A model generated the notes under the pieces. The model made no database searches, was not told the DNA's origin, and worked only from the letters and a program-made list of their open reading frames with translations. A stretch of DNA of 64,000 bases from Candidatus Altimarinota bacterium (GTDB taxonomy: Bacteria; Patescibacteriota; Gracilibacteria; UBA1369; GCA-2718715). Shown here piece by piece: positions 11,511 through 17,403 of the stretch (within the stretch, counting starts at the first letter, position 1; every line of letters starts with the position of its first letter). The stretch spans positions 384,001 to 448,000 of the forward strand of contig JBESAV010000001.1 of NCBI GenBank assembly GCA_041242255.1. Direction: 5' to 3'. The position numbers and the translations under genes are program-made.

Positions 11511-12026
11511 ATGACCATTCACCACCAAAACCCAGACCCAAAAATCATCCAATCTCTAAAAGACCAATCCATAAGCTACACTTTGCTGGAGCACTCTCCA
11601 TTCTTCAGCTGCCAAGACTCAGAAAGCTTCTGGTCTAACCGCATCCAAAGCTCTAGTCAAACCATCGCCAACTGCAAAACTCTCATGCTTAGAGATAAGA
11701 AAAAGAAAAACTACTACATGTACATCACTTTCTGCGATCAAAAAGTAGACCTTAGTCAGTTCCAAAACGACATAGACTCCAAACGACTAAGCTTCGCTTC
11801 TGAATCCGATTTAGAATCTCTCCTTCAAGTTTACCCAGGTTGCGTAAACCCATTTAGCCTCATTCACGATCAAGAAAATATGATCCATGTCTACATCCAC
11901 AAAGAAACACTCAAATTTGACCTTCAAGCTTTTCACCCAGGCAACAACAAATATTCCATAGAGCTTACAACACAAGACTTCCAAAATTTTCTATCCAACA
12001 CAGGTAATAAAGTCACTATTCTTTAG
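11511..12026 (+). CDS. YbaK/ProXp-type aminoacyl-tRNA deacylase
   Basis: CKTLMLRDKK, RLSFAS, PGCVNPF, FHPGNN. Confidence 0.82.
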   Translation: MTIHHQNPDPKIIQSLKDQSISYTLLEHSPFFSCQDSESFWSNRIQSSSQTIANCKTLMLRDKKKKNYYMYITFCDQKVDLSQFQNDIDSKRLSFASESDLESLLQVYPGCVNPFSLIHDQENMIHVYIHKETLKFDLQAFHPGNNKYSIELTTQDFQNFLSNTGNKVTIL

Positions 12027-12591
12027 ATCTCTTCCAACAACTTTCAAGGTGGTCATCTACCATCCCAACCGCTTGCATATAGGCATACATTATTGTCGGT
12101 CCCACAAAACTCATCCCACGCTTTTTTAGATCTTTCGATAATGCACGACTAATTTCAGTCTCAACCGGCACATCCTTAAACTTCCCCCAAGTATTCACTA
12201 TCTGCTCTTCATCTACAAATCTCCACAAATACTCATCGAAACTCCCAAATTCATCCACAATATCCAAAAATACTAGAGCATTTTTCCTCACTGAATAAAT
12301 CTTCAGTTTATTCCGAATTATACCTTCAAACTCCCTAAGACTCTCCAGTTCCTCATCACTCATTTCTACTATAGCACCAATATCCCAATCCTTAAAAGCT
12401 TCTCTATATCCTTCTCGTTTCTTCAGAACTGTTTCCCAGCTTAACCCAGCCTGCGCCCCTTCAAGTATCAGCATCTCAAAAAGCTTCTTATCATCATGCA
12501 CAGGCACACCCCATTCTTCATCATGATAACGAGCGTAAAGCTCATCCTTCCCAAAACATCTTTTACGATTATCCATAAAACGAATTAACAT
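12016..12591 (-). CDS. tag: DNA-3-methyladenine glycosylase I
   Basis: YHDEEWGVP, LEGAQAGLSW, FVGPTIMYAYMQAVGMVDDHLESC; alternative start at 12576. Confidence 0.95.
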   Translation of the reverse strand: MLIRFMDNRKRCFGKDELYARYHDEEWGVPVHDDKKLFEMLILEGAQAGLSWETVLKKREGYREAFKDWDIGAIVEMSDEELESLREFEGIIRNKLKIYSVRKNALVFLDIVDEFGSFDEYLWRFVDEEQIVNTWGKFKDVPVETEISRALSKDLKKRGMSFVGPTIMYAYMQAVGMVDDHLESCWKRSKE

Positions 12592-12646
12592 TTACATCTT
12601 ACAACACTCTTCGCTAAGATAAAGTAATCTAAAGCAACCCAAACAA

Positions 12647-14029
12647 ATGCCTAAAAACAAAAAAAATGAAATCCTCCAAGCCATCTGGCAGTTAGCCGAT
12701 GGCCAAAAGTCAGGCCTCAACATTGGTTCAAGAGCAGTACCGCATCATCTCAGACCCCACGAAAAACCAATCCTCGAAAAAGCTATCGAAAGGGGATACA
12801 TGATCCTCAAAAAAGACGATCGTCCTAACCTCGAAAACCTTTTTTATCTATATAACGAACAATTAGACCAACCAGCCTTCATCTACCGAGAATCTGAAGA
12901 ATTCCCAGTTCAACTTTCCGCTATCCAAGAAAAACTACAAAATTACGATCCAAAAAACTACGCCAAAACTCGCAACCACCTCGAAGGAAATGTCTCTAAA
13001 CTTTCTCCATACATAACTACTGGAATTCTGCCACTTCCATATGTATACCAGTTCATCCAAGAAAAATTCACCCATCTCAAAAAAGACGACAAAATCTTCC
13101 AAGAGTTAGCCTGGCGCGAATATTTCCAAAACGTCTACCAAGAGTACGGAGAAGAAATCTTCCAAAAAGGAATCAAAAACACACAACCAAGAGGCGACCA
13201 TCAAGAGATTCCAACCCTCATCCTCAAAGCCAGAACAGGTATCAAAACTATAGATCGCACCATCCGAGAGCTTTACCGCACAGGTTACATGCACAATCAC
13301 GCTCGTATGTGGCTTGCTTCATTGACTTGCAACCTTTCCAGAACCCACTGGAAACCATCAGCTGACTGGCTCTACTATCATCTTTTAGATGGTGACCTAG
13401 CTTCAAATTATCTCAGCTGGCAATGGGTTTCCGGAGCCTTCAGCAGCAAACTCTACTGGCTAACCCAATCCAACCTCAACAAGTACAGCCCCGAAGATCT
13501 TAAACAATCAGGCACCATCATCGACAAATCCTACCAAGAAGTTTCTAAGTTAGAAATCCCCGAAGAGTTCCAAGAACGATCGAAGCCAGAACTAACAACC
13601 GACCTCAGCCCAATCAATTCTGAAAAATACGAAGATAAACCAACTCTTATTTATAGCATCTGGAACCTCGACCCAGAATTCGGCAATCAAACCACTCAAA
13701 ACGTAAACCCAAAAGATTATCAAAAAGTTCTACTACTCGAGCAAAGTTACTTTGATAGATTTCCAGTATCACCACAAAGGCTCGCCTTTATCTTAGGAAT
13801 AGCCGACAATATTTCAGGACTGAAAGTTGTAGTGGAGGAAAAGTCAGACTTAAAAATATCCCCTGAAAATATAACTTTCATAGATCATCCTAGCCTCCAG
13901 CACTGGCACCATCCTGATTCTACTACACTTAAACCCCCAAGAATCTTCCCACATATTGAAGGCTACTTTTCAAGTTTCTTTAAGTTCTGGAATAAAGCCT
14001 CAAGAAAACCTAAACCCAAAACTTCATGA
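12647..14029 (+). CDS. Photolyase with inverted domain order (NewPHL-like) plus N-terminal extension
   Basis: YAKTRNHLEGNVSKLSPYI, QELAWREY, GYMHNHARMW, LLDGDLASNYLSWQWV in the N-terminal half; short alpha/beta region at the C-terminus. Confidence 0.85.
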   Translation: MPKNKKNEILQAIWQLADGQKSGLNIGSRAVPHHLRPHEKPILEKAIERGYMILKKDDRPNLENLFYLYNEQLDQPAFIYRESEEFPVQLSAIQEKLQNYDPKNYAKTRNHLEGNVSKLSPYITTGILPLPYVYQFIQEKFTHLKKDDKIFQELAWREYFQNVYQEYGEEIFQKGIKNTQPRGDHQEIPTLILKARTGIKTIDRTIRELYRTGYMHNHARMWLASLTCNLSRTHWKPSADWLYYHLLDGDLASNYLSWQWVSGAFSSKLYWLTQSNLNKYSPEDLKQSGTIIDKSYQEVSKLEIPEEFQERSKPELTTDLSPINSEKYEDKPTLIYSIWNLDPEFGNQTTQNVNPKDYQKVLLLEQSYFDRFPVSPQRLAFILGIADNISGLKVVVEEKSDLKISPENITFIDHPSLQHWHHPDSTTLKPPRIFPHIEGYFSSFFKFWNKASRKPKPKTS

Positions 14030-14526
14030 CCAAAGTCCCAGTCTCCAAAAAAACTCGCCCCTGGAACCAACCAAATCTCCCAGTTTATAGCCTATCTACT
14101 TTAGATCCAGATACAGGCACACCCAATATGAACATCTGCACCTATGTTTCAGCCATCACTATGGATACTAAAAGGTTTATGATTGGAGTTTATAAAGGCA
14201 CCAAAACCTACGAAAACCTCCAGAAAACAGATCAAGCCATCCTTCAGATCTTATCAAAAGACAATATCAACTTAGTTAGAAAATTCGGAAAAACCTCTGG
14301 TAAGGATTCTGATAAACTCAAAAACCTAAAAGATCGCATATCCACTCACCAAAACCTCACATACCTCAAAGATTGCACAGCTTTCATGTACCTTAAAACA
14401 ACCGATATCTTCAAAGTGGGCGACCATGATATTTGGGTAATGGAAGTCATCAAGTCTAAATCTCTCAATGACCCAAAAGACATTCTCTATACCTACGATC
14501 TCAAAGAAGCCAAAATCATAGGATAG
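14026..14526 (+). CDS. Flavin reductase-like FMN-binding split-barrel protein
   Basis: PNMNICTY, GTKTYENL, FGKTSG..DK, GDH; ATGA overlap with the photolyase. Confidence 0.85.
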   Translation: MTKVPVSKKTRPWNQPNLPVYSLSTLDPDTGTPNMNICTYVSAITMDTKRFMIGVYKGTKTYENLQKTDQAILQILSKDNINLVRKFGKTSGKDSDKLKNLKDRISTHQNLTYLKDCTAFMYLKTTDIFKVGDHDIWVMEVIKSKSLNDPKDILYTYDLKEAKIIG

Positions 14527-14544
14527 CCACAAAACCCTAAAAGC

Positions 14545-15867
14545 CTATGAAAAACCAAACTCCTCATAATATATCTGATCTTCCGGCACACCTCTTTTCA
14601 TAAGATCAGCTTTAAGAGAAACCATCATCTTATTTGGCCCACACATCATCACAGCATATTCACTCAAATCTTTTCCAACTTCCTTCTCAAGTAGATCTCC
14701 AGTTAGATAACCTTCATTCACAGAGAAGTGTTTGCGATAGGTGAAATTATCATCAGCATTCTGAGCCAATTCATTGATCTCTCCATCGTAGATCAACTCA
14801 TCCTCAGACTTCACACAATGATAAAATTTTATATTTTTACGGTCATCATTTTGTGACTCATGATGAAGCATACTCAGAAAAGGAGTCACACCAACCCCAG
14901 CACCAATCCAAATCTGTTTCTTGTGGAAGTCATACATATGAGATGTAAATTCTCCATAAGGTCCAAATATATTGATGACTTTACCTTCTTCAAGTCGAGT
15001 TAGCTTCTCAGTATAATCCCCAAAAACCTTGTAAATAAATCTCAACTCATTACTCCCAGGCGAAGATGAAATGCTAAATGGATGATGCTCTTTCGGAATC
15101 TCCGTGTGTCCCGGCACAGATATAAAGGCAAATTCTCCAGGCTCAAAATTAATCTTAGTTTTTACAGGCCTCAAAACCAACTCATAAACTCCATCCATCA
15201 CTAGTTTATTCCTGATAACTTCATACTCAAACTTAGGACCAATGTATTCATACAAAAGAGTTTTATACACATACGAACTAACCCCGACCACAAAGCAAAG
15301 TCCCATCCAAAACTGCAAAGGCACAAACCGAGCCACATCACTCGAAGCATTAAAAACGTGATAAGCCGCAATGATAAAAGGGACTCCCATTAAGCTATGG
15401 ATGTTTTTCCAGATGTGATAAGGAATCTTCTTACTCATCGCCAAAGCGATTAAAATAATATACCCATACAAAGCTGTAATTCCAGCTGTCTTAGCCCAAG
15501 TATCAATCCCTGGCACAAACAAAGACCAAACATTTTCTCCAGTCATTAAAAATTGCGGAATCAAAAGCAGGGGGTGTGCAAGTATAAAAACAAAAGCAAC
15601 CTTACTGATCAAGGAATGATTCTTATAAACTTTATCCAATCCACCAAAAACCTTCTCCATAAATCTAACCCTCGACACCATCAAATAACTAACCGCCAAA
15701 AGCACCACCCCAAATAAAGATAGAATCTGACTCAAGTACCTAGGAGTCTCAACCCAAGTCAAAGTATCCACAATCTCAACCTTAGACCACATCCAAATCA
15801 GCGTAGTCACAATCAACGGCAAAGTTATATACAGATGTATATGGCTACTTTTCTCTTTCAAAAACAT
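14545..15867 (-). CDS. Ferric-reductase-like transmembrane oxidoreductase (bacterial NOX-like)
   Basis: TM region with two His pairs (KNHS...LAHP; NIHS...AYHV), HPFSISS, GPYG, GAGVGVTPF, MCGP, C-terminal EEFGF. Confidence 0.88.
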   Translation of the reverse strand: MFLKEKSSHIHLYITLPLIVTTLIWMWSKVEIVDTLTWVETPRYLSQILSLFGVVLLAVSYLMVSRVRFMEKVFGGLDKVYKNHSLISKVAFVFILAHPLLLIPQFLMTGENVWSLFVPGIDTWAKTAGITALYGYIILIALAMSKKIPYHIWKNIHSLMGVPFIIAAYHVFNASSDVARFVPLQFWMGLCFVVGVSSYVYKTLLYEYIGPKFEYEVIRNKLVMDGVYELVLRPVKTKINFEPGEFAFISVPGHTEIPKEHHPFSISSSPGSNELRFIYKVFGDYTEKLTRLEEGKVINIFGPYGEFTSHMYDFHKKQIWIGAGVGVTPFLSMLHHESQNDDRKNIKFYHCVKSEDELIYDGEINELAQNADDNFTYRKHFSVNEGYLTGDLLEKEVGKDLSEYAVMMCGPNKMMVSLKADLMKRGVPEDQIYYEEFGFS

Positions 15868-15948: not shown

Positions 15949-17403
15949 ATGTCCCCGAAAAACACCTTAACAATCTGGTGGATCAAAAGAGACATCCGTT
16001 TACTCGACAACTTGTGTCTCCATAAAGCACTCCAAGACTCCAAATACGTCTTGCCAGTTTTCATATGGGAAGAAAACATTTTCTCTCACCAGCAATACTC
16101 AAGATTCCATTTTGAAGCCATAAATACTGCATTAAAAGACCTCCAAAAAAATCTAAAAACCCTAAACTCAAATCTCCTTATACTGAGAGGGGAGACACTC
16201 CAAGTCTTCAATCAACTAAAATCCCAATACAACTTCCAGGCTATCTATTCCCATGAAGAAATTGGGTCGGACATAACTTACCAAAGAGACATCCAAGTCC
16301 AAAAATGGTGCCAACAAAACCAAATCAAATACAAAGAATTCCCACAGCTTTCAGTCATCAGAGGTCTTAAAGATAGAGATAAGCTTGATCAGTCATGGAA
16401 AAAACGCATCCAAAACTCACAAGTCATCCAGTCTCCAAACTCAGTTCCACTCCCAAAAAATTTCAAACCTATCTTCGACAACTCTTTCAAAACCACAAAA
16501 CCAACCTTCGAAGATCCAAGCCAGACCATCATCCAATCCACCTCAGAAACCTCCGCTCACAATATCTTAAACTCATTCCTTAAAGACCGCTCCAAAAGAT
16601 ATCGTGGCTCGATCAGCTCACCAAACACCGCTCTCAAATACGGGTCTAGACTCTCCACTCAGCTAGCCTACGGAACTATGTCCATGAGATACATCTACCA
16701 GCAAACCGAACAAAAGCGAAAAACCACCAAAGACCCTTGGCAAAAAAAAGGCCTTCAAGCCTTCAAATCCAGGCTTCACTGGCATGATCATTTCATCCAA
16801 AGACTCGAAATGGAACCCCAAATGGAATTCTACGCCCTAAACCCATTGTTTGAAGATTTACCTTACACCAATAAACCAGAAAATCTCCAAGCTTGGCTAA
16901 AGGGTCAAACTGGAGTTCCTCTAGTCGATGCTTCTATGCGATGCTTACGACACACAGGGTTTATAAATTTCCGGATGCGCTCAATGGTAACTTCTTATGC
17001 ATGTCATGCTCTCCACCTCGATTGGAGGTACATCATGTACCCACTAGCTCAACTCTTCACAGACTACGAACCAGGTATCCATATCTCTCAACTTCAAATG
17101 CAAGCCGGAGTAGTCGGTATCAACACTATTCGAGTCTACAACCCATACAAACAAGCCATCGATCAGGATCCAAGATGCATATTTATCAAAAAATGGGTCC
17201 CTGAACTCCAAGGTAAGTCTCCAGCTGAGATACTATCCGTAGAGACAATTCCTCTTTTAAACAGCGATTATCCTAAACCAATAGTAGATTTCAAAGCTCA
17301 AACCAAAATCATGAAAGATGCCCTCTACAAAAGAAAAAAGTCTACCGAAAATGCCATCCTCAAATATCAAGTTCTCCACAAACATGGCTCTAGAAAGTTC
17401 TAA
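15949..17403 (+). CDS. Cryptochrome/DNA photolyase family protein (canonical domain order)
   Basis: WWIKRDIRLLDN, SRLSTQLAYG, GQTGVPLVDASMR, NFRMR, DYEPGIH, RVYNPYKQ..DQDP. Confidence 0.92.
   Translation: MSPKNTLTIWWIKRDIRLLDNLCLHKALQDSKYVLPVFIWEENIFSHQQYSRFHFEAINTALKDLQKNLKTLNSNLLILRGETLQVFNQLKSQYNFQAIYSHEEIGSDITYQRDIQVQKWCQQNQIKYKEFPQLSVIRGLKDRDKLDQSWKKRIQNSQVIQSPNSVPLPKNFKPIFDNSFKTTKPTFEDPSQTIIQSTSETSAHNILNSFLKDRSKRYRGSISSPNTALKYGSRLSTQLAYGTMSMRYIYQQTEQKRKTTKDPWQKKGLQAFKSRLHWHDHFIQRLEMEPQMEFYALNPLFEDLPYTNKPENLQAWLKGQTGVPLVDASMRCLRHTGFINFRMRSMVTSYACHALHLDWRYIMYPLAQLFTDYEPGIHISQLQMQAGVVGINTIRVYNPYKQAIDQDPRCIFIKKWVPELQGKSPAEILSVETIPLLNSDYPKPIVDFKAQTKIMKDALYKRKKSTENAILKYQVLHKHGSRKF

Follow-up and report, generated by a model that had tools for sequence, protein, structure and literature searches.

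The window analysed here, a 64,000-nucleotide stretch of a Candidatus Altimarinota bacterium genome (GenBank assembly GCA_041242255.1, contig JBESAV010000001.1, positions 384,001–448,000), encodes a short photolyase that is fused to a domain absent from most of its relatives. The gene is a single open reading frame (ORF) with an ATG start (12647..14029, + strand), and its 460-aa product contains three parts, all encoded on the + strand: an N-terminal module without a family name, hereafter X (aa 1–85; 12647..12901), a flavin adenine dinucleotide (FAD)-binding all-helical catalytic domain (aa ~86–310; 12902..13576), and a small C-terminal α/β domain, the Z-domain (aa ~331–460; 13637..14026). 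The latter two make up a photolyase of the NewPHL class. We read the gene as a Rosetta-stone fusion that joins NewPHL to a dedicated accessory module, X, which would engage nucleic acid; this is, on balance, probable.

The genome (G000) consists of one contig of 1,000,477 bases with an estimated completeness of 98.5%. An alternative genetic code was considered, since relatives are Gracilibacteria, and was ruled out: with table 11 the coding density of the window is 95% and TAA, TAG and TGA are all in use as stops, which indicates the standard code. The AlphaFold2 (AF2) model of the full protein, with an 89-row alignment as input, has a predicted local distance difference test score (pLDDT) of 95.6 and a predicted template modelling score (pTM) of 0.94. 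A search with the whole protein returned 6826 homologs at E ≤ 1e-3, and PF03441 is present in every one among the matches listed.

The core is a photolyase of the NewPHL class

Pfam places PF03441 (FAD_binding_7) at aa 152–267 and neither of the antenna domains PF00875 and PF04244 in the 460-aa protein; a 484-aa photolyase-family protein encoded nearby matches PF00875 in the same search. The C-terminal halves of the NCBIfam models for DASH, PhrB and 8-HDF photolyases align from aa 81–92 to aa 263, all far under their cut-offs (98.4 against 317.05 bits for DASH, TIGR02765, and 68 against 506 bits for PhrB). The protein is not a Cry-DASH by TIGR02765, as only profile positions 216–397 of 431 are matched. 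Sequence matches in the PDB (6kii, 1np7, 1tez, 1dnp and others) cover aa 85–283, with 76 bits over aa 99–266 for 6kii and 1np7. The AF2 model of aa 77–305 superimposes on residues 191–462 of E. coli photolyase 1dnp with a Z score of 18.0 in the structure-comparison tool VIA and a root mean square deviation (rmsd) of 2.8 Å over 226 aligned residues. Eleven residues of the catalytic domain are invariant in an alignment of 15 sequences (A1), namely E153, W156, N217, R220, M221, W235, D248, G249, N254, W258 and W260, and these line up with the equivalent motifs of 6kii and 1np7. In E. coli numbering, the active-site residues presumably include the counterparts of EcCPDI E274 and N341, and the proximal and medial tryptophans are retained.

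The Z-domain matches no Pfam model (aa ~331–460). Its AF2 model contains strands at 333–336, 359–364, 392–396, 409–412 and 426–428 with helices in between, and E365, F369, P373, S375, F381, H414, F444 and W448 are invariant in A1. The domain ends in G-Y-F-S-S-F-F-K-F-W (aa ~439–448), and a 67-row alignment (A6) shows at least 90% conservation of the equivalents F353, F354 and W357. The reading of the alignment suggests that this FF..W end corresponds to the 'GFF' and Trp motif described for NewPHL (PMC7736829). The only cysteine of the protein lies within LTCNL, which places the protein outside the four-cysteine iron-sulfur subgroups.

The characterised members are DsNewPHL (A8LJA9) and MmNewPHL (M7YZC8); DsNewPHL has 405 aa, with the catalytic domain at M1–S255 and a Z-domain with the conserved Trp and the GFF motif at W256–S405, and EcCPDI E274 and N341 are the reference residues named for active-site conservation (PMC7736829). 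NewPHLs use FAD as the sole cofactor, carry no antenna, and repair cyclobutane pyrimidine dimers (CPDs) in single-stranded DNA (ssDNA) and not in double-stranded DNA (PMC7736829, PMC8476157). The 'short photolyase-like' proteins (SPL; 250–400 aa) are stated to be the same family, and their subgroups with an iron-sulfur cluster carry four conserved cysteines (PMC8476157). The window protein, with its catalytic domain followed by a Z-domain within the ~50–150 aa of the class, without an antenna domain and without a four-cysteine cluster, is a NewPHL/SPL-class photolyase, a membership that is based on architecture, length class and motifs. The original prediction, which was made from the DNA letters, had proposed an inverted NewPHL topology, and the order of PF03441 and Z-domain without PF00875 agrees with it and with the DsNewPHL layout (PMC7736829).

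Domain X is a folded module that other photolyases lack

Eight of the 120 best homologs (P0001–P0008; 436–476 aa; 90–40% identity) span at least 95% of the query. The remaining 112 cover 71–87% of it, are mostly 358–395 aa long, and start one to a few residues ahead of the invariant F86-P87. Two additional fusions were found, the fragment P0010 (338 aa) and P0198 (445 aa), and among photolyases X is present only in these ten proteins. X is thus not standard in the NewPHL family.

The AF2 model of the full protein shows X as a helix-rich body with just two short strands (helix 3–17, loop 18–39, helix 40–49, strand 52–54, helix 60–72, strand 79–81) and block pLDDT values of 89–98; X has no match to photolyases. 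Modelled alone, X reaches a pLDDT of 88.4 and a pTM of 0.78. The loop at aa 19–39 (12701..12763, + strand) carries the family signature G..GSRxxPHxL...E: in a 100-row alignment (A4), conservation is complete for L35 and E39 and reaches at least 90% for G19, G27, S28, R29 and H33. This loop is neither helix nor strand in the full model, with block pLDDT values of 92–97. The earlier expectation of a folded N-terminal domain foreign to photolyases is therefore borne out by the fold model and by the absence of X from 112 of the 120 best homologs.

The window protein and its eight fused homologs share 96, 97, 79, 75, 70, 63, 34 and 34% identity over aa 13–85, compared with 89, 84, 61, 58, 49, 48, 41 and 43% over the catalytic core, which indicates that X is more conserved than the core in six of the eight. 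Only about eight residues separate the last strand of X (79–81) from the first core helix (90–98) in the AF2 model. Half of the 50 structural alignments listed against solved photolyases begin at model residues 50–57, which match residues ~167–232 of those structures, and part of X therefore occupies the point at which the inter-domain linker of canonical photolyases joins the helical domain. The possibility that X is a remnant of that linker was ruled out because X forms an independent gene family.

X is a family of small autonomous proteins

A whole-protein search of the relatives' genomes yielded small ORFs that match aa 9–72 alone. Two genomes (G006 and G007) contain X genes of 77–78 aa, and a third (G004) contains a copy with stops. 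This copy (L087; G004:C3:10539-10724) carries two interrupting stops, a TAG and a TAA, and is apparently decaying, in a genome without a photolyase match. A database search with aa 1–85 returned five proteins of 108–112 aa with 42–47% identity, which share the motif GKKSG.IGSRAVPHHL..E....ERA..RGY......R.NLENLW; stand-alone homologs thus exist for the independent module that had been proposed as the fusion partner. With ORFs from the relatives and from elsewhere together, stand-alone X proteins have 77–134 aa. A profile of 15 X members was compared with 1.84 billion cluster representatives, of which 447 matched at E ≤ 1e-3 and 128 at E ≤ 1e-10. Among the best 150 of the 447, 91 have 60–175 aa and 59 are longer. 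The isoelectric point (pI) exceeds 8.5 in all 85 of the stand-alone proteins of 60–160 aa, with a median of 9.8. X is, as far as these sequences indicate, a family of small, basic, autonomous proteins of ~75–160 aa.

X gave no match to a described family and no clear match to a known fold. At E ≤ 1, none of the 15 members has a meaningful Pfam match, and 28 of 30 longer homologs have no Pfam match, with PF03441 and RRM_1 in the remaining two, both outside X. NCBIfam gave no match, PHROGs none below E 0.04, and the PDB no sequence match, with a best E of 0.37 in a profile search. The fold searches yielded a best E of 0.4 with Foldseek against the PDB and a best Z of 4.3 with VIA against 48,161 chains, and the ESM Atlas gave no usable match. 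The Foldseek rows (lumazine synthase, ribosomal L7Ae/L30e and similar) have probabilities of at most 0.15 (lumazine synthase at most 0.09) and were set aside as noise. An R3H-like reading of the G-S-R-x-x-P-H stretch, with R-x3-H as what we take to be the R3H signature, was dropped in view of the lack of a Pfam or fold match.

Names were checked for 20 of the 150 listed proteins (16 of them from the 59 longer ones). Ten carry eukaryotic names, all annotated as 'hypothetical', and they come from Entomoneis (a diatom), Bigelowiella, Marchantia, Riccia, Calypogeia, Ceratopteris, Spirogloea and Cyanophora; no angiosperm is among these ten. These organisms all bear plastids (liverworts, a fern, a zygnematophyte, a glaucophyte, a diatom and a chlorarachniophyte). 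The Entomoneis protein (P0249) has an RNA recognition motif (RRM_1) ahead of X. A second conserved stretch, W..PIW/Y-K/Q-L/I-P ... AK..A..L..LW, is common to the C-terminal parts of the longer eukaryotic homologs P0231, P0234, P0238 and P0249, whose long N-terminal leaders resemble targeting sequences.

X recurs as a separate gene beside NewPHL

Eighty genome loci were fetched with the photolyase as query and then scanned with a local X profile. A separate X gene stands beside a short NewPHL in seven of the 80 (L006, L007, L009, L021, L023, L025 and L061), among which Crocinitomicaceae, Gracilibacteria, Peribacteria and Luteolibacter are named. The two genes are ~20–160 bp apart or separated by one small gene. 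They are convergent in L006 (Crocinitomicaceae; 19 bp) and L009 (Peribacteria), divergent in L007 (21 bp), and on the same strand in L021, L061, L023 and L025. The fullest cluster reads NewPHL, a DUF2256 zinc ribbon, X, and a second photolyase-family gene, this one with two domains; an FeS-BCP-type gene accompanies some of the clusters. In three of these loci (L021, L025 and L061; Gracilibacteria or 'bacterium'), in-frame TGA codons occur at the 3′ ends of the NewPHL frames and beyond; this pattern fits the TGA=Gly code of Gracilibacteria, and the gene ends in the three loci therefore depend on the code chosen.

A metagenome scan centred on X, with a pattern taken from a narrower alignment (A5), added ten loci. 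Seven have a separate NewPHL beside X and one is a fusion; L094 and L095 are near-identical, L096, L097, L098 and L102 are identical, and L099 stands on its own, so that approximately four loci are distinct. The scan is biased, because its search pattern derives from the operon-type X subfamily. The fusion (L101) is found at the end of a contig, where Tag and the fusion gene diverge as they do in the window, and L103 is a weak, partial X match. The background is very low: a sample of 400 further genomes from the window's phylum contained no X at E ≤ 1e-3.

The fusion has a single origin

A quick maximum-likelihood tree was built from 79 NewPHL core sequences. A NewPHL match of at least 300 profile positions was required, which excluded 17 of the 80 genome loci along with L099, L100, L101 and L103. 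All ten fused rows fall on one side of one branch with an SH-aLRT support of 99, which indicates a single origin of the X-NewPHL fusion. The nearest rows are a Peribacteria metagenome-assembled genome in which X is adjacent and two rows of G006, in which X is found elsewhere in the genome, and the label 'X adjacent' requires five changes on the tree. The fusion arose in one lineage of ultra-small (~1 Mb) Peribacteria-like bacteria.

Genes around the fusion

The start of a flavin reductase-like gene (14026..14526, + strand; PF01613, E 3.2e-18) overlaps the stop of the fusion gene in the sequence ATGA, and the two genes are likely co-translated. Among the 90 loci scanned (L001–L080 and L094–L103), flavin reductase homologs adjoin NewPHL in seven, namely L003, L006, L033, L036, L041, L045 and L099, two of which contain X (L006 and L099); in L006 the reductase-like gene is directly upstream of NewPHL and X is downstream. 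Its product may provide flavin to the photolyase or return it to the reduced state. On the other side, a divergent gene for 3-methyladenine DNA glycosylase I (Tag; 12016..12591, − strand; PF03352, E 1.7e-77) lies 55 nt away. The gene of the 484-aa protein (15949..17403, + strand; PF00875 and PF03441) is a second, canonical two-domain photolyase/cryptochrome-family gene, homologs of which adjoin NewPHL in 23 of the 90 loci. Between the two photolyase genes, a ferric-reductase-like membrane flavoprotein is encoded (14545..15867, − strand; PF01794, PF08022, PF00175); no homolog of it was found in the other 90 loci.

In 43 of the 90 loci, DUF2256 (PF10013, ~48 aa) is encoded within the flanking sequence fetched around NewPHL. 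The DUF2256 gene of the window genome (G000:C1:222219-222335) is close to a third photolyase-family gene (~C1:219841), at a distance of ~175 kb from the window. Of the three photolyase/cryptochrome-family genes of this genome, two lie in the window; the other, a 498-aa ORF, is under the Pfam cut-off for PF03441.

Window positions 12400–14600 are contained in at least seven DNA runs from marine or seawater metagenomes, four of which are possible sources, and no RNA run among the matches listed covers them. The long ORFs of the 64-kb window are mostly on the minus strand, and the GC skew is strongly negative (−0.15 to −0.43) in every 2-kb interval of 1–64000 at a GC content of 34–41%, an unusually strong strand asymmetry.

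X as a candidate accessory subunit of NewPHL

In the reading that we favour, X would be an accessory subunit that is physically bound to NewPHL, docked where the catalytic domain begins. This docking is suggested by the short linker, the pTM of the model and the aligned ranges that begin at residues 50–57. X would hold UV-damaged DNA that is single-stranded or locally opened, or possibly RNA, or present it to the enzyme, whose CPD repair is by itself confined to ssDNA. FADH− photochemistry would proceed as in other CPD photolyases. The handling of nucleic acid is proposed because the stand-alone proteins are uniformly basic and one homolog is fused to an RRM. Since X is elsewhere a small protein encoded beside such photolyases, it would be an undescribed helper of light-driven DNA repair.

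Several points weigh against this proposal. The fused X of the window is not basic (pI 6.84; 13 K+R and 13 D+E), X matches no nucleic-acid-binding fold in the Foldseek and VIA searches, and the case for nucleic-acid binding, or for the change of substrate range that the original prediction had considered, is an indirect one. The placement of X on the core depends on model-wide scores. A complex prediction for the stand-alone X and the NewPHL of L094 (A6, A7) gave no verdict (score 0.00) and is evidence neither for nor against an interaction. X is missing from 40 NewPHL loci for which 2 kb or more of sequence is available on either side, and the two characterised NewPHLs are active alone in vitro (PMC7736829). 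Conversely, X is present without any PF03441 match in G007 (99% complete, 10% contamination) and, in broken form, in G004 (95% complete); it adjoins a phosphatase-like gene in L100 with no photolyase within 5 kb; and it occurs in eukaryotes, whereas NewPHL is reported from bacteria only (PMC7736829). X is therefore not obligatory for NewPHL, nor NewPHL for X, which indicates that X has an activity of its own that NewPHL exploits in some lineages.

Such independence is the core of a first alternative, in which X is a small repair or processing protein, nuclease-like or lesion-binding, that shares only the regulation of a UV cluster with NewPHL, so that the fusion merely secures co-expression. 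We regard this as unlikely, and yet it accounts for the X genes in photolyase-less genomes, in non-photolyase contexts and in eukaryotes. The clusters mix repair genes (the FeS-BCP type, DUF2256, the second photolyase/cryptochrome-family gene and, in the window, Tag), the invariant S, R, H, E, R and N residues of X could be catalytic, and aa 36–90 weakly superimpose on Smr (Z 3.4) and tRNA-splicing endonuclease (Z 3.0–3.3). However, these structural rows fall in the noise range stated by VIA. The very short linker and the high model confidence argue for one compact body, X is conserved above the enzyme core inside the fusion clade, and the adjacency is specific to NewPHL in same-strand, convergent and divergent orientation, which goes beyond operon co-regulation.

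A second alternative, which appears slightly more doubtful, holds that X is a cofactor module that binds a second (antenna) chromophore, or that loads, shields or reduces FAD, perhaps together with the co-translated flavin reductase. NewPHLs have neither an antenna domain nor a bound antenna (PMC7736829, PMC8476157), and the strictly conserved polar loop of X (S28, R29, H33 and E39), together with R59 and N64, resembles a ligand site. The reductase gene overlaps the stop of the fusion gene and recurs by NewPHL, twice with X. X is also near the N-terminus of the core, and P9 at the N-terminus of DsNewPHL covaries with the Z-domain that seals FAD (PMC7736829). In contrast, no flavin-, pterin- or deazaflavin-binding fold was matched, with the lumazine synthase rows at noise level. 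X is present without any photolyase and is RRM-fused in eukaryotes, and the uniformly high pI of stand-alone X suits nucleic acid better.

The last alternative, an untranslated or functionless leader ahead of an ordinary short NewPHL, is very improbable: no obvious Shine-Dalgarno motif is present in the 55 nt upstream of 12647, but the only in-frame ATG, GTG or TTG codons among the first 110 are at codons 1 and 52, of which the latter would halve the conserved domain and neither is near aa 86; aa 13–85 are 96–97% identical in the two closest homologs and 63–79% in four more, each above the core; and the extension is clearly homologous to stand-alone proteins. The concerns raised with the original prediction (an extension that is orphan, disordered, mis-started or standard in the family) thus do not apply.

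Beyond the accessory role, X may represent a new nucleic-acid-binding fold and the missing substrate-handling subunit, which, fused or in trans, would extend NewPHL to duplexes, forks, bubbles or RNA, with the homologs of plastid-bearing eukaryotes as a related light- or UV-linked nucleic-acid factor. We consider this broader version rather improbable. That X is a photolyase accessory factor of a new type is, however, a real possibility. If X is a conserved partner, fused in one lineage and neighbouring in several phyla, then some NewPHLs are two-component enzymes. The fusion would then provide an experimental handle on how NewPHL finds its substrate, and NewPHL a first functional context for an unnamed family, with 447 cluster representatives, whose range extends to algae and early-diverging land plants. 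It also stands in a 1.0-Mb bacterial genome that retains three photolyase-family genes.

Comparison with known systems

The X domain, the X family and the X-NewPHL cluster association are absent from the papers searched. In the literature covered, neither the fusion nor its partner is described, and supplements might list longer members; the text of PMC7736829 contains no mention of an operon, gene cluster, neighbours, fusion or Patescibacteria, and that of PMC8476157 no 'N-terminal extension'.

The weak superpositions of X aa ~36–90 on Smr (2vkc) and on the C-terminal domain of tRNA-splicing endonuclease (3ajv, 2zyz, 1a79) have Z scores of 3.0–3.4 and rmsd values of 2.6–2.9 Å over 48–55 residues, which are within the noise range of the tool and serve as a lead only. 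Sequence similarity is absent, and the loop 18–39 and helix 1 of X have no counterpart in these structures. DUF2256 is, like X, a small uncharacterised protein of NewPHL clusters, and in L023, L025, L094 and L096 its gene directly separates NewPHL from X. The two are unrelated in sequence, and DUF2256 is far commoner next to NewPHL.

Compared with Cry-DASH and class I CPD photolyases (1np7, 6kii, 1dnp, 1tez), the window protein has a homologous catalytic domain without PF00875 ahead of it, and the domain order is inverted. The ssDNA specificity of NewPHL is shared with DASH (PMC7736829). The closest likeness is to NewPHL (Emmerich et al., 2020; PMC7736829) and SPL (Xu et al., 2021; PMC8476157), which have the same domain order, a Z-domain of ~120–150 aa, the FF..W end and no antenna; the active-site Glu, Trp and Asn positions are kept in the window protein, and its best homologs are 358–395 aa long. 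Relative to the 250–405 aa described for this class, the window protein adds the 85-aa domain X and reaches 460 aa.

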